DNA from: a phage
Direction: 5' to 3' (one strand)
Length of the DNA stretch: 45,007 nucleotides
NCBI GenBank assembly: GCA_014469095.1
Contig: GCA_014469095.1_4330.1
Below, piece after piece: positions 3,000-45,007 of this stretch (its first letter is position 1; each line of letters starts with the position of its first letter). A program made the position numbers and the translations under genes. The notes under the pieces were generated by a model. That model searched no databases and had not been told where the DNA came from. It saw only the letters and a list, made by a program, of their open reading frames with translations.

Positions 3000-3030
3000 A
3001 TTCTGCCTCTCCTCTCGTTTGTGTAAATGA

Positions 3031-3059
3031 ATAGTATCCTATTCTTCCCCAGCGTGCAA
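3031..3059 (-). promoter_or_regulatory. Sigma70-like promoter, type A (TTGCAC-N17-TACTAT) with dyad core AATAG-N4-CTATT
   Basis: Minus strand reads TTGCACGCTGGGGAAGAATAGGATACTATTCA; near-identical to the elements at 4155, 27560, 37114 and 38953. Confidence 0.55.
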
Positions 3060-3206: not shown

Positions 3207-3392
3207 TCACACCTCCGGCGGCTCAGGTAACGGCATCCAGTGCGTTATATCACCGTGATATAAACTCTTTGCAGGCCCCCAGTAGCCATCTGAATTAACA
3301 CGCATAACCTCACAGCCAACAAAACAATCAGTTACAAGAACGTATTCATAAGGCTCCGGCATCCGCTCACTACACTTAATCCACTTGCTCAT
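3207..3392 (-). CDS. DUF551-like phage protein, 61 aa
   Basis: ORF track; W-x5-ERMPE...VLV...THWMPLPEPPE pattern recalled for DUF551; a paralog lies at 9249..9506. Confidence 0.5.
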   Translation of the reverse strand: MSKWIKCSERMPEPYEYVLVTDCFVGCEVMRVNSDGYWGPAKSLYHGDITHWMPLPEPPEV

Positions 3393-3550
3393 AAATCGCC
3401 TCTCTTCTCAAATGCGCCAGCCATTACATTCGCACCAGCTTTCCACGCCCGCCACGCGAGACGCGTCTTAACGTTCAGGTACTCTTTCTTCGAACCCTTA
3501 TTAACCGGCAGACCCTCGACGATGGCCCACCGTTCGAATGCTTCTCTCAT
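3389..3550 (-). CDS. Small ORF, 53 aa (MREAFERWAIVEGLPVNKGSKKEYLNVKTRLAWRAWKAGANVMAGAFEKRGDL)
   Basis: Absent from the track; ATG follows GAGGT; stop overlaps the ATG of 3207..3392 (ATGA). Confidence 0.35.
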   Translation of the reverse strand: MREAFERWAIVEGLPVNKGSKKEYLNVKTRLAWRAWKAGANVMAGAFEKRGDL

Positions 3551-3702
3551 ACCAGAACCTCGCATTCATCCCGATACACGAACAATAATGACCCTTTGTA
3601 CTCAATCATAAAACCATAATGGTTGCTGCTGAACGCCAGAAAAACATCACCTACCGAGATACCGAAATCTATAAGCCTGCGGTCAGTTATTCGAATTTTC
3701 AT
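3547..3702 (-). CDS. Small ORF, 51 aa (MKIRITDRRLIDFGISVGDVFLAFSSNHYGFMIEYKGSLLFVYRDECEVLV)
   Basis: Absent from the track; strong SD GAGGGAGG; overlapping start and stop with both neighbours. Confidence 0.4.
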   Translation of the reverse strand: MKIRITDRRLIDFGISVGDVFLAFSSNHYGFMIEYKGSLLFVYRDECEVLV

Positions 3703-3935
3703 TAACGGCAACCTCCCTCAGAGTCGTCGGCACGAGCATCATGATTAGATGCCGTTGTGTATACCTTCGCTTCTGCCTTAGTTACCGGGATTGTGTATCT
3801 TCCTGTCTTAATCCACCAGCCATCCTCACAGGAATCCAGTACATTGAAAACATCTCCCACATTTACGCCTATTTTCTCGAGAGTATCACCATCTTCTTCG
3901 TAGATAACGGTGTTATCTGTAATTATGATTTGCAT
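3702..3935 (-). CDS. Hypothetical protein, 77 aa
   Basis: ORF track 3702..3938; ATG at 3935 overlaps the upstream stop (TGATG). Confidence 0.5.
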   Translation of the reverse strand: MQIIITDNTVIYEEDGDTLEKIGVNVGDVFNVLDSCEDGWWIKTGRYTIPVTKAEAKVYTTASNHDARADDSEGGCR

Positions 3936-4120
3936 CACTTCACCCCTTTGAATTTAAAATTGTTGCCGATGAGTGTTAAATTATCTCTGAAAGCGTAACC
4001 ATGTTTCTTTCGTACAAGACCCCATACGTCTACAGCGGTACTATATTCATCCTCATTCTGGGTAACTATTACGTACTGTCCGCCGCGTTTTGTTTTAACC
4101 AACTGACCCTTCTTAAACAT
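3935..4120 (-). CDS. Hypothetical basic protein, 61 aa
   Basis: ORF track 3935..4147; ATG at 4120; first gene downstream of the 4155-4183 promoter. Confidence 0.5.
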   Translation of the reverse strand: MFKKGQLVKTKRGGQYVIVTQNEDEYSTAVDVWGLVRKKHGYAFRDNLTLIGNNFKFKGVK

Positions 4121-4154
4121 AACCCTCACCCCTCTGTCTTGTTTCAATAAGTGA

Positions 4155-4183
4155 ATAGTATCCTATTATGTTGGGGTGTGCAA
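4155..4183 (-). promoter_or_regulatory. Sigma70-like promoter, type A (TTGCAC-N17-TACTAT)
   Basis: Minus strand reads TTGCACACCCCAACATAATAGGATACTATTCAC; heads the leftward small-gene block. Confidence 0.6.
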
Positions 4184-4262: not shown

Positions 4263-4558
4263 CAGCGGAGTGAAGTACTCTCTACCTCGCCCACGGCAAC
4301 TATAGAAACTTTTAATTATCAGATACTTAAGAGATATGCTGCCGATGAGAATAGAGCTTGCCCAGGGCAACCGGAGATACTTAGAAAAGAAAGTTACGGT
4401 AATTTTTATGTTCAGTAATCTGCCGCTTAACACTTCGCTTGCGCTTTGGCGCAGCTGCGTTTCAAGCGGGTATTACAAGGTGAACAAGAATCAAAGTAAC
4501 TAAGATATAGAAGCACCTTAAACGAAGATTTTCATAATGTCAATAGGTGTGATTATGT

Positions 4559-4587
4559 TTGATTTCCCATTATTCGCAATGTATACT
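4559..4587 (+). promoter_or_regulatory. Sigma70-like promoter of the rightward early operon
   Basis: TTGATT-N17-TATACT about 30 nt upstream of the ATG at 4620; lacks the dyad core of the other promoters. Confidence 0.5.
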
Positions 4588-4619
4588 TGGTTTCGTTAAC
4601 TGATAATGAGGGTTTGAGA

Positions 4620-4772
4620 ATGGTTACTTTGACAGAAGAACAGTTGAAAGAGTTGCTGATAGAAGCGTGGTTTAACGGGCATAACGAGAGCAGATACTGC
4701 CCTAATAAATACGGCACAGCTACAGTGTTCGCACGGGAAACAATTAAGGAGATTAAAGATGACGCAGAATGA
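4620..4772 (+). CDS. Hypothetical protein, 50 aa
   Basis: ORF track 4587..4772; the TTG at 4587 lies inside the predicted -10, so the ATG at 4620 (SD GAGGG) is preferred. Confidence 0.45.
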   Translation: MVTLTEEQLKELLIEAWFNGHNESRYCPNKYGTATVFARETIKEIKDDAE

Positions 4773-4929
4773 AGTAGCTGAGCGTATCGGGGTTACTCGT
4801 CGCACATTGAATAACTGGTTAAAGAATGGGAAATTCCCGGATTGCTGTATCCGCATTATGGGTCGCCGTCAGCCAGGTACGTTCGACCCGGAGAAAGTGG
4901 AAGCGTGGATTAAGGAGAACGTAAAATGA
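4759..4929 (+). CDS. AlpA/excisionase-like HTH DNA-binding protein, 56 aa
   Basis: Not in track; MTQNEVAERIGVTRRTLNNWLKNGKFP... has the layout of AlpA-type HTH regulators; SD AGGAGA; stop overlaps the next ATG. Confidence 0.5.
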   Translation: MTQNEVAERIGVTRRTLNNWLKNGKFPDCCIRIMGRRQPGTFDPEKVEAWIKENVK

Positions 4930-5176: not shown

Positions 5177-7504
5177 GTGAACGCCGAGGCTAAATTACTT
5201 GCTGAAGGAATATACAATATGTCCGATGTAATTTTATCCTACTCGTGGTCCCGTCGCAACGCGCGGGCCGAGAAAAAGGATATAAACGTCAGAACCACAC
5301 ACACGGCAACACTGGACGACCTGAAAGAGTTAATCCAGCCGCTCGATGCTGTTCGTGACGGGATTAACCCGAAGACCGCCCCCGGATATATCACTGCTGC
5401 GTGCGACTCTACGCACGGCACCGTAAAAGACCCGGAAACCGGAGACTTTAAGCAAGCGCGTAAAGGCTTCTTCTACCGCTGCGACGCGTCTGTGACCAAA
5501 TCGTCGCTGGCATATCTGGACTTCGACAGCGCGACGCCGGAAGAGTATCAGGAAGCTGTGCGTCTGGTTAAGCGCAGCCGCCGGGCTATGTGTCTCTATA
5601 CCACGGCATCACATACCGATAAGTCTCCGCGCTTTCGCGTCGTCATGCCGCTGGCCCGTCCGGTTGAAGGTGGGGGCATCATCCGCGTTCGCCACGGATT
5701 GCTTGAGCACTTCTTCAAAGGCATGGGTGCCGACCGCAGCGGGTTCACTCTTTCGCAACCGATGTACCTGCCGCCGGTCGGCTCTCAGGTTATCTGGTCG
5801 CGCCGCAACGACCTGATTGACCCGGACGAGTTACTGGAAGGCATCCCGGATTACGAGGTGAGCAGCGCATCGGATTACCAGATACCGGAAGAACTGCGCA
5901 CCACGTTTACCGACGCATTCGAGGCACTGGCGTTCGAGTACGGTGGCGTCATGACGCCCCGCGGTCTGAAAATGCCTGCCACGCCAGAACATGCAGAAAA
6001 CTACAGCGACCCGACGCCACGCCCGGACGACTTCCTGCTGTGTTTCCCGCGTGAAGGGTACGAAGCACCTAACGTAACCATGATTCACGACACCGACATT
6101 ACGGCAACCGAAGGCATGTCACCGAAAGATGTGTGGAAGTATGCGTGCGATGCGACCGGGCTGCCGTTCAGTGAAGTCGCTGAGGCAATTGGCTGGGGCG
6201 CGCGGGAGTCCGTTTCATGCAGCCTGGACGACCTGGAAGACGACGAGGACTCAGAAGAGGACGAGTTACCAGAACCGGTAAAGGCTGATTTCGTCGTTGA
6301 GGGGTACATGCCGTCGGATTGTATCTGGGATATTGTCGGGGAATCCGGCACGTACAAATCATTCTATACGCTGGGGATGATGTACCTGAGCGCCGCCGGG
6401 TACCGGTTTGCGGGGGCTGACACCCAACGTTGCCACCATTTCTATATTGACGGCGAGGGTGGTGCAGCTACACGAACACGTATTGATGCACTCGCGGCTA
6501 AATATGGCGAGGAAGGTAAAGATTATGTACATGTCATCGATATGGGCGAAATACTCGCTACGCATGGTGATAAAAAAATTCCAGCTCTAATCCGCAGGAT
6601 GCGCGAAACCGCAGGGGATGAACCTATTGGCATGGTTGCCTTCGACACCCTTAACCAGACGCTGGCCCTGACGATTGATAAGTTCGACGAGAACAGTTCA
6701 TCAACGGCAATCGGTATGGGTAAAGTTATCGCCATCCTGAAAGAAGTGCGCGATGCAACTAAAGCCGCTGTCGGTGTCGTTCACCATACTCCGAAGGGCG
6801 GAAAGAAAGCCCGCGGCAGTGGAGCATTGTATGCGGGTGTCGACGTGGAACTGACAATCGAACGCGCTACCGACCGTCAGATAAACGTATACCACTCTAA
6901 ATTTAAGCACGGTCCGCAACAGAAGACGGTTGGCATGGTACTGGAGTCTGTACAGTTCCGTGAAGCACCGCCGCCGAAAGAGTACCGCGCGGTTGAGTTC
7001 CTCGGTAGCACAGAGGAATACGGCACAATAGTAAACCTCGACCTGCCTGAGCCGCACAAGGCGCTTGTATTGATGCCGTGGGGCTTCGAGCCATTCAAGA
7101 CCGACGAGGAGAAAGAGAGGGAAGAAGGGTTAACTAACGAAGGTAAACAAAATGTACGTAAAACCATAGAGAACGCCGTCAACAGTTCCGAGGCCACGAT
7201 ACTCGCGGCGTTTGAACTGGCGGAGGGGACCTACAACGGCAACGAGGGCATCACGGTATCCGCAGCGAATAAGCTCGCGCAGTCTGACCCCAACGCAAAG
7301 GCGTTTAACTCCAAAGAAGCCATAGAACGCGGGAAGATTAAGAAAATGGTTGAGGCTGGGTATCTTGTTCCGGGTACTGACGAAAACAATCAGATAATCC
7401 CAGGCCGTTACAGACTGAACACCATGATAACAGATAACAAGATTCCGAAGACAATATACGAGCCGAATGAAATGCTGACAGTGACCGAGGAGGATTTGGA
7501 ATGA
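5177..7504 (+). CDS. Putative DNA primase/helicase (primase-like N-terminal region plus RecA-like NTPase core)
   Basis: ORF track (GTG 5177; ATG 5219 with SD GAAGGA is the alternative); N-terminal LDFD and SHTD motifs suggest an archaeo-eukaryotic-type primase; C-terminal GESGTYKS, AFDTL and VVHHTPKG resemble RepA/DnaB-like cores, though the P-loop is non-canonical. Confidence 0.55.
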   Translation: MNAEAKLLAEGIYNMSDVILSYSWSRRNARAEKKDINVRTTHTATLDDLKELIQPLDAVRDGINPKTAPGYITAACDSTHGTVKDPETGDFKQARKGFFYRCDASVTKSSLAYLDFDSATPEEYQEAVRLVKRSRRAMCLYTTASHTDKSPRFRVVMPLARPVEGGGIIRVRHGLLEHFFKGMGADRSGFTLSQPMYLPPVGSQVIWSRRNDLIDPDELLEGIPDYEVSSASDYQIPEELRTTFTDAFEALAFEYGGVMTPRGLKMPATPEHAENYSDPTPRPDDFLLCFPREGYEAPNVTMIHDTDITATEGMSPKDVWKYACDATGLPFSEVAEAIGWGARESVSCSLDDLEDDEDSEEDELPEPVKADFVVEGYMPSDCIWDIVGESGTYKSFYTLGMMYLSAAGYRFAGADTQRCHHFYIDGEGGAATRTRIDALAAKYGEEGKDYVHVIDMGEILATHGDKKIPALIRRMRETAGDEPIGMVAFDTLNQTLALTIDKFDENSSSTAIGMGKVIAILKEVRDATKAAVGVVHHTPKGGKKARGSGALYAGVDVELTIERATDRQINVYHSKFKHGPQQKTVGMVLESVQFREAPPPKEYRAVEFLGSTEEYGTIVNLDLPEPHKALVLMPWGFEPFKTDEEKEREEGLTNEGKQNVRKTIENAVNSSEATILAAFELAEGTYNGNEGITVSAANKLAQSDPNAKAFNSKEAIERGKIKKMVEAGYLVPGTDENNQIIPGRYRLNTMITDNKIPKTIYEPNEMLTVTEEDLE

Positions 7505-7820: not shown

Positions 7821-7839
7821 AAGGGGCTTTAAGCCCCTT
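7821..7839. terminator. Bidirectional intrinsic terminator between convergent genes
   Basis: AAGGGGCT-TTA-AGCCCCTT perfect palindrome with T-rich flanks; overlaps the stop of the HTH gene. Confidence 0.65.
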
Positions 7840-8044
7840 CACCTAACGCCAGCCACTTGGCGTCTACTTCCAGAACTTCCGCCAGTTTGAACAGCGTTGC
7901 CGGGCGGACGTCCTGAGTTACTCCAAGTGCCAGTTGGTTAATCGCGCCCTGGGAAACGCCGGTCAGGGCCGCCAAACGGCGCTGGGAGATGCCGAGTTCT
8001 TTACGGCGTTGTTCTACACGGATACCTAGTTCAGATGGTTGCAT
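7829..8044 (-). CDS. XRE/Cro-type helix-turn-helix transcriptional regulator, 71 aa
   Basis: ORF track; LGISQRRLAALTGVSQGAINQL is a classic XRE HTH; SD AGGAG; transcribed opposite to the flanking early genes. Confidence 0.8.
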   Translation of the reverse strand: MQPSELGIRVEQRRKELGISQRRLAALTGVSQGAINQLALGVTQDVRPATLFKLAEVLEVDAKWLALGEGA

Positions 8045-8064: not shown

Positions 8065-8094
8065 TTGATATGTGAATAGTACCATATTAATTAT
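8065..8094 (+). promoter_or_regulatory. Promoter/operator element with dyad core; its complement carries TACTAT for the HTH gene
   Basis: TTGATA-TGTGAATAGTACCATAT-TAATTA; the core GAATAGTACCATATT overlaps a minus-strand TACTAT about 30 nt upstream of the HTH gene SD. Confidence 0.4.
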
Positions 8095-8108
8095 TTTAGA
8101 AAAGCCCA

Positions 8109-8137
8109 TTGACATGTGAATAGTTCGCTATTATAGT
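8109..8137 (+). promoter_or_regulatory. Sigma70-like promoter, type B (TTGACA-N17-TATAGT) with dyad core
   Basis: TTGACA-TGTGAATAGTTCGCTAT-TATAGT; 28 nt upstream of the 8166 ATG. Confidence 0.65.
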
Positions 8138-8165
8138 TAGCCCATACCAAACGAGAGGGGCGGAT

Positions 8166-10744: not shown

Positions 10745-10947
10745 TGATTCAAGTAAATGAAATGCCCACAGATAAAGATTTTGTGATGATATGGCGCTGG
10801 GGCGGTTATATCCATTCGGAATCGTTTACGTTCCTGAACGGCACGATGGTGCGATACAACCATGTGGAGGATGAATTCGAACCCGTTGATATGAATGATT
10901 TCGAGAACATAGTCCGTATTGCGAAATTTTATTTGACACCTGAATAG
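10744..10947 (+). CDS. Hypothetical protein, 67 aa
   Basis: ORF track; start overlaps the nuclease stop. Confidence 0.45.
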   Translation: MIQVNEMPTDKDFVMIWRWGGYIHSESFTFLNGTMVRYNHVEDEFEPVDMNDFENIVRIAKFYLTPE

Positions 10948-10961
10948 TTAGCTATTATAGT
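10933..10961 (+). promoter_or_regulatory. Sigma70-like promoter, type B (TTGACA-N17-TATAGT) with dyad core
   Basis: TTGACA-CCTGAATAGTTAGCTAT-TATAGT; overlaps the 3-prime end of the upstream ORF. Confidence 0.6.
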
Positions 10962-11016
10962 TCTAATCACTGGCCGGGCAGCTCCCGGAGTAAACTGAAA
11001 ACTGAGGAATCGAGAA

Positions 11017-11662: not shown

Positions 11663-11686
11663 AAGGCCCTTCATTGGGCCTTTTTA
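11663..11686 (+). terminator. Intrinsic terminator
   Basis: AAGGCCC-TTCATT-GGGCCTT followed by TTTTAC. Confidence 0.65.
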
Positions 11687-14230: not shown

Positions 14231-14511
14231 CCCCGGAAGGCAAGATTCAGAAATACGCAAAAGAGCGATTCGAGGCCATTGGTGGCCTCGTTCGCAAGAT
14301 GGCATTTGAAGGCCGGCGAGCCGCCATGGACCTGCTGGTAATTCTCCCCGGCGGTATCATCTGGTTCGTCGAGATTAAGAAAGACGAAAACACGAAGCCT
14401 GACCCCCACCAGTTACGCGAGCATGAAAGATTCCGTAAACGCGGTGCAAATGTTTTTGTCGTTGGTTCGTTTAAACAGGTTGACGACCTAATAGCGAACT
14501 ATTATAGTTAG
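14227..14511 (+). CDS. VRR-NUC domain nuclease, 94 aa
   Basis: ORF track; DLLVILPGGIIWFVEIKKD...PHQLREHERFRKRGANVFVV has the PD-(D/E)xK layout with EIK. Confidence 0.65.
   Translation: MTPEGKIQKYAKERFEAIGGLVRKMAFEGRRAAMDLLVILPGGIIWFVEIKKDENTKPDPHQLREHERFRKRGANVFVVGSFKQVDDLIANYYS
14480..14508 (+). promoter_or_regulatory. Sigma70-like promoter, type B (TTGACG-N17-TATAGT) with dyad core
   Basis: TTGACG-ACCTAATAGCGAACTAT-TATAGT; overlaps the 3-prime end of the VRR-NUC gene. Confidence 0.55.
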
Positions 14512-14541
14512 CCTTACACCAACAATATAAGGAATTGAGAA

Positions 14542-16830: not shown

Positions 16831-17342
16831 TGGATTTCGAAGAGTTTCTACTTAAAGCTCATCTGCTGGCGCGTGGGTTTGACGCTGACCGTCTCCAGGT
16901 AGTCTTAGCCCCTGGAGTAGCTACGTTTTACCTGTGGGGGTTTGACGGTAGGCTTCGCGGATACCAGCATTACAAACCACATGCCGAAAAGAACTGTAAA
17001 AACCCTAAAGACGCGCGGTACTTTACCAGAACAACAAGGCCGTGTTTATGGGGGCTTGAGTATTTGCCGGAAAGCGGGGTGGTATTTGTTACCGAAAGCA
17101 TATTCAAAGCCGTAGCCTTGATGAATTGCGGGTTCAATGCTGTAAGCGCACTGGGGTCAAATATATCAACAGACCTACGGCAGCAAATGTCACTTTTGCC
17201 GTATGACTGGGTGTGCGCTGGCGACAATGATAAAGCTGGATTAAAGTTCAGCAAAACATTCACCAGAGGATTTGTATCTAACGACCTTGATGAACTTTGT
17301 GAAGAAGAAATAACGTATCTTGCGAGGAAATTTACCAGATGA
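16827..17342 (+). CDS. Toprim-like domain protein, 171 aa
   Basis: ORF track; conserved Glu in VFVTESIFKA and a DxD in CAGDNDKAG. Confidence 0.45.
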   Translation: MMDFEEFLLKAHLLARGFDADRLQVVLAPGVATFYLWGFDGRLRGYQHYKPHAEKNCKNPKDARYFTRTTRPCLWGLEYLPESGVVFVTESIFKAVALMNCGFNAVSALGSNISTDLRQQMSLLPYDWVCAGDNDKAGLKFSKTFTRGFVSNDLDELCEEEITYLARKFTR

Positions 17343-27452: not shown

Positions 27453-27559
27453 TCTTTAATCCTTTGGTTAAGAGGTTACTGGTTAAAGGAAATGCGCCAG
27501 ACGGGAACCACCCGCTTTTCGTGTGCGACACTAGGCGCAAAATTATTCTAGCACACTAC

Positions 27560-27588
27560 TTGCACACCCCAATATAATAGCGTACTAT
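27560..27588 (+). promoter_or_regulatory. Sigma70-like promoter, type A (TTGCAC-N17-TACTAT) driving the rightward cassette
   Basis: TTGCAC-ACCCCAATATAATAGCG-TACTAT-TCAC. Confidence 0.6.
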
Positions 27589-27630
27589 TCACTTACACCA
27601 ACGATGTTATCTCAAATCAGGAGTTATGTT

Positions 27631-30034: not shown

Positions 30035-30061
30035 AAGGCCCCGAAAGGGGCCTTAGTTTTA
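30035..30061. terminator. Bidirectional intrinsic terminator (AAGGCCCC-N4-GGGGCCTT family)
   Basis: AAGGCCCC-GAAA-GGGGCCTT then AGTTTTA. Confidence 0.75.
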
Positions 30062-36794: not shown

Positions 36795-37044
36795 GTTTCT
36801 CCTTTCTCGATAAGTAAAGCCCCGCCTTAAAGCGGGGCGCTAGTCCTTATCATTTAAACATAGAAACGGCGTAATCTCAGTAAACCAGTTACTTTTTACA
36901 CAAGCAATAGAGTATGGCCCGTCCGAACGCGTCAGCGTAACTACACTCAGGACTTACGTCCCGCTCCGTTACCTGCCCGCGCCGCGGTCGCTTGTTCATA
37001 CTTCACAAGCTCAGGTGGAGCTTATCATATTTTTAGTGAAAAGT

Positions 37045-37072
37045 CAACTATTCGAATAGTTTATTCCAACAT
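37045..37072. repeat. Perfect 16-bp palindrome AACTATTCGAATAGTT followed by TTATTCCAACAT, copy 2
   Basis: The palindrome carries the CTATT/AATAG half-sites of the promoter core in everted order; lies upstream of the spanin genes and of the 37114 promoter. Confidence 0.5.
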
Positions 37073-37113: not shown

Positions 37114-37142
37114 TTGCACACCCCAATATAATAGGGTACTAT
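37114..37142 (+). promoter_or_regulatory. Sigma70-like promoter, type A (TTGCAC-N17-TACTAT)
   Basis: TTGCAC-ACCCCAATATAATAGGG-TACTAT-TCAG, then SD GCAGGAGGTG. Confidence 0.65.
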
Positions 37143-37169
37143 TCAGTTAACTTAAGCAGGAGGTGAAAA

Positions 37170-37373
37170 ATGTATGCAATTTGCGAAGTAGTTCAAGAGT
37201 TCGATGAAGAGTTCGACGGTGACTTGTGCCGTGTTAAAAAGGTTCTGCAGGTTTTCCCTGACGTAAACTCCGCTAACAAGGCATTAGAGCTATTCGAACC
37301 TGGAAGATATGGGGATTATGACACTGTTCTGAGGGTGGTGCATGAACAGAAATTAGGTACAAAATTCCGTTGA
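37170..37373 (+). CDS. Hypothetical acidic protein, 67 aa (single-gene cassette)
   Basis: ORF track; own promoter and terminator, opposite in orientation to the surrounding head genes. Confidence 0.6.
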   Translation: MYAICEVVQEFDEEFDGDLCRVKKVLQVFPDVNSANKALELFEPGRYGDYDTVLRVVHEQKLGTKFR

Positions 37374-38952: not shown

Positions 38953-38981
38953 TTGCAGACACCAACATAATAGGGTACTAT
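38953..38981 (+). promoter_or_regulatory. Sigma70-like promoter, type A (TTGCAG-N17-TACTAT)
   Basis: TTGCAG-ACACCAACATAATAGGG-TACTAT-TCAT. Confidence 0.6.
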
Positions 38982-39016
38982 TCATTGCATCGAAACGAGA
39001 GATAAGGAATTTAGAA

Positions 39017-39298
39017 ATGGCTAAATATTCAAACAGTGATTTATATCTTACATGTGTATGTGTTGATAGCGTTCAGGTAGAGTGTGTCGCTCAGGAGTGG
39101 ACTTCCAGTGAAGAAGATATATTTAAAATAGGGCGCAAGTATTGGCTACACCACGGGTGGTTGACTAGACCTAACGGGGACTCCGATGTGGAACTTTGGT
39201 GGGTAGAGTATCGCGGGCGCTCGTATATCTGTTGGCCCGAAACGAAAAACGGCGCCACCAGTTACACCGCTACCAGCACTGGATTTACATTTGTATAG
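39017..39298 (+). CDS. Hypothetical Cys/Trp-rich protein, 94 aa (single-gene cassette)
   Basis: ORF track 38909..39298; ATG at 39017 with SD AAGGAA; own promoter and terminator between the portal and head-morphogenesis genes. Confidence 0.6.
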   Translation: MAKYSNSDLYLTCVCVDSVQVECVAQEWTSSEEDIFKIGRKYWLHHGWLTRPNGDSDVELWWVEYRGRSYICWPETKNGATSYTATSTGFTFV

Positions 39299-43056: not shown

Positions 43057-43313
43057 TCCCCGCTCTCCTCTCGCGCAATGCGTTGCTCTGTTTTAGTGAT
43101 ACCACGGCGCGTGAATAACACCGGGCTTGTCTTAACGTGCGTCATAAGGCGGTTATTATAAATTACATGGCGCTCGCATTTCACGTCTTTGCTGTACTTC
43201 GCAATCGTCATTTCGTTGAGGCCTGTTTGTCGGCACGTCTCCGCCATCGTGCCAAATTCTTTAATAAGGTTAGGAATGCTGGTAATCATCCTAAGAAATT
43301 CCTCGTCGTCCAC
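43053..43313 (-). CDS. Hypothetical protein, 86 aa, possible HTH
   Basis: ORF track; start overlaps the upstream stop. Confidence 0.5.
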   Translation of the reverse strand: MDDEEFLRMITSIPNLIKEFGTMAETCRQTGLNEMTIAKYSKDVKCERHVIYNNRLMTHVKTSPVLFTRRGITKTEQRIAREESGE

Positions 43314-43471
43314 ATCGCATTCGGATATTTGTTATCGCGGTCCTGCACTACGGCGACCATGTTGCCGCGTTGCACCAGGCAGAAGTGCCGTTGCTGCTCG
43401 CCGTTGTAGCGTCGCCAGATTGCCTCTTCGATTGCTGCGTTGATGTCACTGAACATTAGTATCTGCCCCAC
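43286..43471 (-). CDS. Hypothetical protein, 61 aa
   Basis: ORF track. Confidence 0.4.
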   Translation of the reverse strand: MGQILMFSDINAAIEEAIWRRYNGEQQRHFCLVQRGNMVAVVQDRDNKYPNAMWTTRNFLG

Positions 43472-43543: not shown

Positions 43544-43744
43544 TTACCCCACTATCTCATCACCGAGCCACGCCGTTTCTCGTATATCATCGACCACACA
43601 GGCAGCATGCTCACGGCTAATTGCAAAAATGTAGAAGCTGAACTTCTTCCCGTCGGCGTCGATGTGGTTAACCGAGTATGGTTTCCACAGGACGCCATCA
43701 ATAACTACCGGTTCAGGCGCTTTCATCTTCTGGTCCGACAACAT
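43544..43744 (-). CDS. Hypothetical protein, 66 aa
   Basis: ORF track. Confidence 0.45.
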   Translation of the reverse strand: MLSDQKMKAPEPVVIDGVLWKPYSVNHIDADGKKFSFYIFAISREHAACVVDDIRETAWLGDEIVG

Positions 43745-44956: not shown

Positions 44957-44985
44957 AATATAATAGGGTCGAGGATAATAGTCAA
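44957..44985 (-). promoter_or_regulatory. Sigma70-like promoter (TTGACT-N17-TATATT) for the right-end early block
   Basis: Minus strand reads TTGACT-ATTATCCTCGACCCTAT-TATATT; the plus strand carries a partial core AATATAATAGGG. Confidence 0.5.
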
Positions 44986-45007
44986 CTAGTCATCACAGAA
45001 AATAGAT

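Follow-up and report, generated by a model that had tools for sequence, protein, structure and literature searches.

Why would a phage place the same inverted repeat in one promoter after another along its genome? The question is raised by positions 27560 to 27588 of a 45,007-nucleotide (nt) phage contig (NCBI GenBank assembly GCA_014469095.1, contig GCA_014469095.1_4330.1; the whole contig is called the window here), where a promoter-like sequence is built around the dyad AATAG-N4-CTATT and closely resembles elements elsewhere in the window. A preliminary description of the sequence had offered two readings of this family, namely, an operator for a dimeric regulator and a phage-specific promoter class.

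The 4-kb piece around the site is 98.8% identical to Escherichia phage fEg-Eco06 and 98 to 99% identical to several other Kagunavirus (Guernseyvirinae) genomes. Judged by its sequence, the window is a Kagunavirus, a virulent siphovirus of Escherichia coli of about 45 kb. Its replication module runs rightward (4.6 to 17.3 kb), its structural module runs leftward (17.5 to 42.6 kb) and is broken up by three small rightward cassettes, and leftward small-gene and lysis blocks wrap around the window ends. Noncoding sequence makes up 6.3% of the window. Neither the open reading frames (ORFs) of the window nor the annotated relative with 98.8% identity include a gene for an RNA polymerase or sigma factor, every ORF of more than 300 amino acids being accounted for. 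The same ORF inventory and annotated relative revealed no integrase, CI-type repressor, or lysogeny module, and the window has no tRNA gene.

The dyad recurs in sigma-70-like promoters across the genome

A motif search of the window for AATAG-N4-CTATT returned eight exact matches, starting at positions 3030, 4154, 8119, 10943, 14490, 27576, 37130, and 38969, against 0.01 expected; none of 100 shuffled sequences reached eight. With up to one mismatch allowed, 11 dyads were found against 1.14 expected, and the family is thus as real as first proposed. The eight type A and type B sites originally listed hold up, but two members centered on a -35 hexamer, at 44985..44957(-) and 37047..37019(-), had been missed. 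The sites had also been called intergenic. This is strictly true of nine of the 11 dyads, which are wholly noncoding. Of the other two, the dyad at 10943 shares 5 nt with the end of an ORF, and the one at 14490 is wholly contained in the VRR-NUC ORF, at its 3' end. The full element spans 18 bp and is asymmetric when read on one strand (TGAATAG-N4-CTATTAT).

The copies sit in sigma-70-like promoters whose -35-like and -10-like hexamers are 17 bp apart (16 bp in the candidate at 8120..8093). These promoters lie upstream of gene blocks and are co-oriented with them, at the starts of transcription units (Table 1). Some are directly preceded by terminators, such as the one at 3174-3153(-) before the type A promoter at 3059(-). 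In type A (TTGCAC-N17-TACTAT), located at the same five sites and on the same strands as first described, the ATAATAG arm lies upstream and the TGAATAG arm downstream, the 14-mer extends from about -19 to -6, and TA plus CTAT forms the -10 hexamer. Type A copies are alike over about 30 bp, although the 38953 copy reads TTGCAG and the 3031 copy has a divergent spacer. They match the sigma-70 consensus at 7 of 12 positions (3/6 plus 4/6), keeping TTG, A2, T6, and the 17-bp spacer, and a generic promoter scanner run on the window did not list them. We also considered whether CACCCCAA, conserved in the type A spacer, serves as a bottom-strand -35 hexamer, and rejected this because it is plausible only at 27560 and not at 37114 or 4155.

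In type B (TTGACA-N17-TATAGT, with TTGACG at 14480), which likewise occurs at the three places originally given, the element is inverted and lies 6 bp further upstream, at about -25 to -12, where it fills the spacer; only the last T of the dyad is common to TATAGT. These promoters match the sigma-70 consensus at 10 to 11 of 12 positions. In type C, which comprises the two newly added sites, a one-mismatch dyad is centered on the -35 hexamer of a promoter with 10 of 12 consensus matches; the site at 44957..44990 is conserved in Jerseyvirus and is annotated there as a promoter. The inversion of the element between types A and B, noted in the preliminary description, is therefore correct, but the downstream half of the dyad forms the -10 hexamer only in type A and not, as had been stated, always. 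Relative to the predicted start, the dyad centers fall at about -12.5, at -18.5, at about -16 (position 16957 of phage Jersey), and at about -33, and both orientations are used. A promoter with the element heads nearly every transcription unit; among strong promoter candidates, only 100(-) and the divergent 4543(-) and 4559(+) are without the dyad.

Around the type C site at 37047(-), several further features are visible. A leader of about 190 nt is followed by a hairpin (GCCCCGC-N6-GCGGGGC) and then by the spanin and capsid genes (36819-37047), a layout that hints at late genes under antitermination control. A perfect 16-bp palindrome, AACTATTCGAATAGTT, is built from copies of the operator arm that face outward. 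It occupies 37046-37061, directly against the -35 hexamer of the 37047(-) promoter, with its center at about -41.5.

Table 1. Candidate promoters, dyads, and associated genes in the window
Feature	Position	Strand	Details
Type A promoter	27560..27589	+	-35 TTGCAC 27560-65, -10 TACTAT 27583-88, dyad 27576-27589; drives sie/exonuclease/PNK/dNMP-kinase cassette
Type A promoter	37114..37143	+	Dyad 37130-37143; drives 67-aa gene 37170..37373
Type A promoter, TTGCAG variant	38953..38982	+	Dyad 38969-38982; drives small gene at about 39017-39298; overlaps start codon of divergent minor head protein gene
Type A promoter	4154..4183	-	Dyad 4154-4167; drives a leftward block of five small genes, 4147..3207
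Type A promoter, divergent spacer	3030..3059	-	Dyad 3030-3043; drives next leftward block
Type B promoter	8109..8137	+	Dyad 8119-8132 in spacer; drives rightward replication/recombination genes
Type B promoter	10933..10961	+	Dyad 10943-10956; drives DUF2815 and DNA polymerase genes
Type B promoter, TTGACG	14480..14508	+	Dyad 14490-14503; drives 63-aa, methylase, and helicase genes
Control region of helix-turn-helix (HTH) gene	8075..8120	-	Imperfect dyad AATAGTACCATATT 8075-8088; TTCACA-N16-TAAAAT (8120..8093) or extended -10 TGgTACTAT
Type C promoter, TTGACT-N17-TATATT	44957..44990	-	One-mismatch dyad ACTAGTTGACTATT; heads small-gene block running into terminase genes
Promoter-like (type C), TTGACT-N17-TAAGCT	37019..37052	-	One-mismatch dyad AATAGTTGACTTTT 37039-37052 over -35
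71-aa Cro/434-like HTH_3 protein	7829..8044	-	Monocistronic; terminator 7840-7820 right after gene
56-aa HTH_17 protein (MerR/Xis-like winged helix)	4759..4929	+	In primase operon, dyad-free promoter 4559
Tail-operon promoter TTGGGG-N16-TAGAAT (27572..27545) and int-alpA-like leader RNA (27541..27477)	27477..27572	-	Overlaps type A spacer

The arms of the dyad are fixed while its center varies

We compared the dyads of the window with those in 80 IMG/VR loci around homologs of the HTH gene at 7829..8044 and in the complete genomes of phages Jersey and St162 and Serratia phage Otaku. A multicopy dyad is present in all Kagunavirus loci and in Jerseyvirus. Its AATAG arms are unchanged in 36 distinct Kagunavirus sites and 16 Jerseyvirus sites (arm information content, 2.0 bits), and the central 4 bp take 20 different forms among the 36 Kagunavirus sites. 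The combination of a free center with fixed arms is seen in paralogs as well as in about 20 genomes of relatives. At orthologs of the promoter divergent from the HTH gene, the arms stay constant; what changes, in sequence and even length, is the center and the DNA that separates the dyad from the -35 hexamer. Immediately flanking the arm, all 32 Jerseyvirus half-sites have a T; among the 72 Kagunavirus half-sites, this base is G in 30 and T in 36. The one-mismatch copy centered on the -35 hexamer is also kept in both genera, with the imperfect arm on opposite sides (ACTAG..CTATT versus AATAG..CTAGT).

Other lineages have dyads of their own. The complete genome of St162 contains neither the AATAG dyad nor a gene for an HTH_17 protein, a second HTH family that is considered below. 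It carries instead the dyad ATAWTA-N6-TAWTAT at seven sites (1.3 expected; none of 100 shuffles reached seven), of which there are no copies in the window. All seven lie in promoter regions, one of them at the position equivalent to 27576 of the window; the right arm coincides with the -10 hexamer in three, and the -35 hexamer falls in the center in three. In Otaku, dyads of the AATAG type are degenerate and occupy seven intergenic sites, mostly within promoter-like sequence. The L026 and L036 lineages have TAAGA-N4-TCTTA in common, with one copy just upstream of the HTH gene. The existence of such lineage-specific promoter dyads indicates that the operator-in-promoter design is subfamily-wide and that the half-sites are particular to each lineage. 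Outside this group, a scan of IMG/VR for the 18-mer TGAATAGNNNNCTATTAT returned mostly single chance matches in unrelated contigs and no unrelated phage group; the multimatch loci that we inspected were all 42- to 45-kb contigs like those of Kagunavirus.

Alternative readings of the element

Fixed arms, a variable 4-bp center, use of both orientations, and three positions relative to the core promoter make an operator for a dimeric regulator, the first of the two readings originally offered, the one that best fits the sequence data. Varied placement in either orientation is consistent with occlusion and repression and not with a motif recognized by polymerase. The explanation that we favor, with a confidence somewhat above even, is that these are host sigma-70 promoters, each with an 18-bp P22/434-type operator to which a dimeric HTH protein of the phage, likely the product of 7829..8044, would bind and so block polymerase.

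A simpler possibility is that the element has no dedicated regulator and consists of back-to-back -10-like A/T hexamers, forming bidirectional or competing promoters within a cassette spread by duplication. The arms do contain -10-like hexamers (TATTAT, TACTAT, and TAATAT), and the right arm supplies the -10 in type A and in three St162 promoters. On the bottom strand at 27576, both TTGGTG-N16-TATTAT and TTGGGG-N16-TAGAAT point toward the tail operon, and the approximately 30 bp common to type A copies suggest shared descent. The upstream arm of type B (TGAATAG), however, has no role in sigma-70 recognition and provides no usable bottom-strand -10, yet it is invariant in three paralogs and two genera. 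RNA polymerase with sigma-70 shows no preference for particular bases in the spacer, to which this arm belongs, and the preliminary description was right that conservation extends beyond the needs of the -35 and -10 hexamers. Furthermore, bottom-strand transcription at 3030 and 4154 would run antisense to the upstream genes, the copies centered on a -35 hexamer are tied to no -10, and the combination of a free center with unchanging arms argues for selection on the arms rather than recent copying. We think it improbable that promoter hexamers and duplication explain the family.

The second reading originally offered, a phage-specific promoter class, is taken here as one for a phage RNA polymerase (RNAP) or sigma-like factor and matches a label that is in print. 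PHIRE output in the paper on phage fBC-Eco01 gives tgAATAGTa-ccTATTat-T as the consensus of seven "phage RNAP promoters" (PMC9825357). The seven PHIRE promoters in the paper on phage Golestan include TAATAGCGTACTATTCACTT, which is orthologous to 27576, as well as the imperfect dyad of the HTH control region (PMC7203180). PHIRE merely finds repeated 20-mers, however, and the absence of a phage polymerase or sigma gene from the window and its annotated relative refutes this reading as far as sequence can. The element is also found in both orientations and at no fixed distance, flanked by canonical host-type -35 and -10 hexamers. We consider a phage-specific promoter class to be scarcely credible.

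A Cro-like protein is the leading candidate binder

The 71-aa product of 7829..8044 matches Pfam HTH_3 (E value, 4e-13). Its closest relatives of solved structure are 434 Cro and repressor (E value, about 1e-5) and P22 c2, and it is 39% identical to 434 Cro over the aligned fold. A fold model (pLDDT 81) resembles HipB, the C proteins C.BclI and C.AhdI, 434 Cro, and P22 c2. This AlphaFold model and that of the HTH_17 protein (pLDDT 78) are single-sequence models of moderate confidence, from which we took the fold class only. Among predicted sequence-specific DNA-binding proteins, only the Cro-like HTH was found in every Guernseyvirinae lineage examined.

The position of the gene is also suggestive. 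It is bracketed by dyad copies at 8075 and 8119, both within the 121-bp control region that reaches up to the type B promoter at 8109, and the -35 hexamer of that promoter abuts that of the divergent HTH promoter. Because of where the minus-strand promoter options fall in this region (the TTCACA-N16-TAAAAT candidate has 10 of 12 consensus matches), both operator copies overlap the HTH gene's own promoter. The preliminary description had treated 8065-8094 as a variant promoter of the family; this stretch does hold an imperfect dyad but is better read as the minus-strand operator and promoter region of the HTH gene. The imperfect dyad, AATATGGTACTATT, stays imperfect in 13 of 13 Kagunavirus loci.

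In temperate phages, homologs of the protein are encoded in cI/cro-type divergent regions beside 5-N4-5 dyads with related half-sites. The recognition helix SQGAIGHL (locus L074) is accompanied by AATAC-N4-GTATT and ATTAC-N4-GTAAT, SQSTIGNL (L042 and L083) by AACAC-N4-GTGTT, SQATISQL (L085) by ATTAG-N4-CTAAT, and TQQSIVSI (L040) by the 434-like ACAAT-N4-ATTGT. Homologs with SQGAI.. thus go with AATAC or AATAG, and St162 differs in both helix and half-site. We also considered a simple code linking helix residues to half-sites across these relatives and found it only partly consistent, with Jerseyvirus and L026/L036 as exceptions.

Gene-level transcriptome sequencing of Kagunavirus K1B4 identified the HTH-domain gene 008 as one of only four early genes (PMC12645636). 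Gene 008 follows the DNA-binding gene 004 and the AAA gene 005, and from this gene order it is likely to be the ortholog of the 71-aa Cro-like gene.

If the Cro-like protein is the binder, host sigma-70 RNA polymerase would initiate at all of the dyad promoters, and the dimer would build up from its own early transcript and fill the operators. Gripping the two arms, it would compete with polymerase for the -10 hexamer (type A), the spacer (type B), or the -35 hexamer (44985 and 37047). Since the operator overlaps one of these parts in each case, its occupancy would turn down almost all transcription units together. The cassettes, replication operons, and small-gene blocks would be damped and, finally, the HTH promoter itself through its weaker imperfect copy, amounting to negative autoregulation. 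We infer binding, the identity of the binder, and the sign and timing of regulation of the dyad promoters from the motif statistics, promoter context, conservation pattern, protein family, and gene layout observed here.

Several points weigh against this proposal. The recognition helix is SQGAINQL in Kagunavirus and SQSLITHL in Jerseyvirus, and the two proteins are only 48% identical, yet the core AATAG-N4-CTATT is the same and only the base that flanks the arms differs. Conversely, the St162 helix TQSAISHL resembles that of Jerseyvirus yet pairs with a different dyad, and L026 and L036 have different helices and one dyad in common. Kagunavirus sites typically combine one G-arm with one T-arm, for which a symmetric homodimer offers no obvious explanation. 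The operator arms are themselves -10-like A/T hexamers, and part of their conservation could reflect promoter function. The K1B4 data are coarse in time; genes behind dyad promoters are among those classed as "late," from which the sign of regulation does not follow. Our literature search found no functional study of promoters or transcript starts in Jersey-like phages or other Guernseyvirinae. Finally, a different protein, the 56-aa HTH_17, co-occurs with the AATAG dyad across lineages. The preliminary description had called the XRE-type HTH protein the obvious candidate. It was a reasonable first candidate, but the helix difference between the two genera and the overlooked HTH_17 protein make it less than obvious.

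The 56-aa protein is MerR/Xis/BldC-like and would be made, together with the primase operon, from the dyad-free promoter at 4559. It scores 30.8 bits against Pfam HTH_17 (cutoff, 27 bits). Among dyad-positive Kagunavirus and Jerseyvirus loci, every one that reaches far enough encodes it at 70 to 98% identity. A tblastn search (E < 0.05) found it in none of the dyad-negative Guernseyvirinae lineages, in which the Cro-like gene occupies its place upstream of primase. Between the two AATAG genera, it is 88% identical with the same recognition helix, VTRRTLNNW, and its fold model resembles the DNA-binding domain of RacA, which binds a 14-bp palindrome. On the other hand, in locus L017 the helix has become VSPMTLNRW, with both arginines lost and the dyads unchanged. 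No dyad lies at its own promoter and no operator copy adjoins the gene, the protein has no obvious dimerization module, and the proteins of closest fold (Xis, BldC, and gpNu1) usually bind direct repeats or form filaments. Promoter-embedded dyads also occur without HTH_17 in St162, L026/L036, and Otaku. We accord HTH_17 a small probability of being the binder; on the sequence evidence, the 71-aa Cro-like protein is the most likely binder and ranks well ahead of it.

Upstream of the HTH_17 gene lie a 50-aa ORF (4620..4772) and the dyad-free divergent pair 4543(-) (TTGACA-N17-TAAGGT) and 4559(+) (TTGATT-N17-TATACT), at 4434-4620, which is kept in Jersey-like loci. These two promoters are candidates for unregulated immediate-early promoters.

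The divergence of the phage HTH proteins raises one further candidate, a host transcription factor common to E. coli and Salmonella, which could account for an identical AATAG core in phages of two host genera. The one-mismatch dyad copies read CTAGT, and the core loosely resembles the TrpR operator (ACTAG-N4-CTAGT). St162 also infects Salmonella, however, yet has a different dyad, and the lineage-specific dyads follow phage lineage and not host. We know of no E. coli factor with the consensus AATAG-N4-CTATT, and we regard a host binder as very improbable. Likeness of the element to the ARG and TrpR boxes was rejected because the spacing or key bases do not match.

Overlapping promoters and a leader RNA at 27.5 kb

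The site that opened this analysis lies beside the divergent tail operon. The 5' leader of that operon matches the Rfam int-alpA RNA (RF02996) with 36.6 bits (gathering threshold, 35.8 bits). This leader is kept in all Guernseyvirinae lineages examined, including the dyad-negative ones, with compensatory changes in 5 of 13 base pairs, and a conserved -10 hexamer precedes it by 6 nt (TAGAAT in Kagunavirus and TATTCT in Jersey). A literature search on int-alpA yielded only unrelated material. Because the -35 hexamer of the leftward promoter, TTGGGG, falls inside the type A spacer, the rightward and leftward promoters must compete.

We speculate that a protein on this dyad would shut the rightward promoter and could favor the leftward one, in the manner of lambda OR2 and PRM. 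Extended to the whole genome, the idea is that a virulent siphovirus would be run by a lambdoid-style Cro switch with one operator per promoter. At 27.5 kb, the dimer would cover the rightward -10 and free or activate the leftward tail promoter (dyad center at about -42 to -45, as for CI at OR2 acting on PRM), and half-sites and HTH would coevolve by lineage. In this full form, we regard the idea as unlikely.

The same geometry could suit a positive factor, with the element serving as the loading or activation site of a Q- or AlpA-type antiterminator or of a class II activator. Relative to the leftward promoter, whose -35 hexamer is weak, the dyad is centered at about -44.5 in the window and at about -42.5 in Jersey. 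Type A, as a poor sigma-70 match (7/12), might need help. Strong terminators punctuate the genome, promoter-leader-terminator units precede late genes, and the phage has an AlpA-like HTH_17 protein as well as an int-alpA-like RNA. But types B and C are near consensus and have no need of an activator, and the shifts in orientation and in position relative to the core promoter, by 6 to 20 bp, are incompatible with a fixed contact with RNA polymerase. Even at the tail promoter, the 2-bp difference between the genera weakens a strict class II geometry. A positive factor therefore seems to us quite improbable, and repression by an HTH dimer remains our preferred explanation.

Comparison with known systems and earlier reports

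The P22 repressor binds as a dimer to an 18-bp site, contacting positions 2 to 7 and 12 to 17 and leaving the central four untouched (PMC4267663). The dyads described here share with the operators of P22 c2 and 434 Cro the 14- to 18-bp inverted repeat, the conserved outer arms, and the approximately four variable, presumably noncontacted central base pairs. As in the lambdoid OR and OL regions, the sites overlap the core promoter, and the regulator gene is divergent from a regulated operon with operators in between, one of them imperfect and placed at the promoter of the regulator itself; the candidate binder, a 71-aa HTH_3 protein, is likewise of this kind. The differences are that this phage is virulent, with no CI, integrase, or lysogeny module, and that about 11 operators are dispersed genome-wide, one per promoter, instead of two clusters of three, with no evident cooperative tandem sites.

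Other systems are similar in part. The stoperators of cluster A mycobacteriophages, bound by L5 gp71, are asymmetric sites of temperate phages. Most of them are located within transcription units, all in a single orientation, and they act by blocking elongation. They also consist of many dispersed copies of one short site through which one small HTH protein brings about genome-wide downregulation, as is proposed here, whereas the sites in the window are dyads within promoters in either orientation. The p4 early/late switch of Bacillus phage phi29 likewise involves a virulent phage, host RNA polymerase, and a small DNA-binding protein at divergent overlapping promoters, where early transcription is repressed and late transcription favored, and it is a possible analog of the 27.5-kb region; p4, however, is not an HTH_3 protein, acts with p6 at one control region, and has no site in every promoter. 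The C proteins of restriction-modification systems are small dimeric XRE-type HTH proteins that autoregulate through dyads over their own promoter, but they control one operon via two adjacent C-boxes rather than a genome-wide set of promoters.

The sequences themselves have been reported before. In the fBC-Eco01 and Golestan lists and in the Jersey GenBank record, where the orthologous type A, B, and C sites are annotated as sigma-70-like promoters, they appear without mention of dyad symmetry, variable center, or link to an HTH protein and without a functional test. Neither the recurrence of the motif nor the prediction of promoters is therefore new. What is new is the reading of the dyad as a putative operator and its proposed link to the HTH protein; these are ordinary in kind and do not constitute a new mechanism.

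Kagunavirus and Jerseyvirus rank with the phages isolated most frequently for therapy and biocontrol of E. coli and Salmonella, and about 490 Guernseyvirinae genomes are present in the collection that we searched. The label of phage RNA polymerase promoter, which has been copied into papers, is corrected here, as no such enzyme is encoded. The operator reading offers a compact regulatory model of one protein, one 18-bp site, and about 11 targets. The defined promoters, of graded strength, could be used for engineering Guernseyvirinae phages, and the lineage-specific pairs of operator and HTH protein would form a natural series for the study of how specificity evolves.

Additional features of the window and its relatives

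Several elements accompany the promoters. A leader motif, (C)ACACCAA(A)CGAGAGG, lies 8 to 25 nt after most -10 hexamers and runs into the Shine-Dalgarno sequence (for example, at 27595-27602, 14516-14523, and 8146-8159). AACGAGAG occurs six times against 1.4 expected, and ACACC(CC)AA is also found in the type A spacer. G+C-rich hairpins lie right after the -10 of the DNA polymerase operon promoter (10962-10995; CCGGGCAGCTCCCGG) and of the scaffold/capsid promoter (36270-36240(-); CCGGGTGGCCCGG). They are conserved in all lineages and may be 5' stabilizing or pause elements.

The hairpin AAGGCCCC-N4-GGGGCCTT is present in four copies, at 11663, 17481, 30035, and 39304. The copies at 30035 and 39304, where convergent blocks meet, score as terminators on both strands, and nearly identical hairpins recur in Jersey, St162, and fEg-Eco06. 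About 60 nt beyond the strong promoter TTGACA-N17-GATACT at 100-72(-), in a unit that continues across the window ends (1-46 and 45007), there is a terminator (CCCGGCCCTGACCCAGCCGGG plus T8) that closely precedes the type C promoter, an arrangement conserved in Jersey-like loci. The predicted RNA of about 65 nt suggests a unit reminiscent of lambda PR'-6S-tR'. It has a weak Rfam match to a toxic small RNA family (E value, 0.6), probably driven by the terminator alone.

The gene at 39017-39298(+), behind one of the type A promoters, has no homolog in fEg-Eco06, Jersey, St162, or Otaku and no Pfam match; in fEg-Eco06, the minor head protein gene that neighbors this locus is annotated with an inserted intein. 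The fEg-Eco06 ortholog of 43286-43471(-) is annotated as "RNA polymerase inhibitor, similar to 2LMC_A" (T7 Gp2). A PDB sequence search with the ORFs 43286..43471 and 43544..43744 gave no match to Gp2 or to any other entry; if the annotation is right, a Gp2-like inhibitor would be odd in a phage that depends on host RNA polymerase. Finally, in phage Jersey (locus L002), the annotated promoter of the moron-like gene Jersey_05, at 5569-5595(-), holds the palindrome AAATGGTATAT-CTAT-ATATACCATTT with perfect 11-bp arms, which may be a private operator of that cassette.

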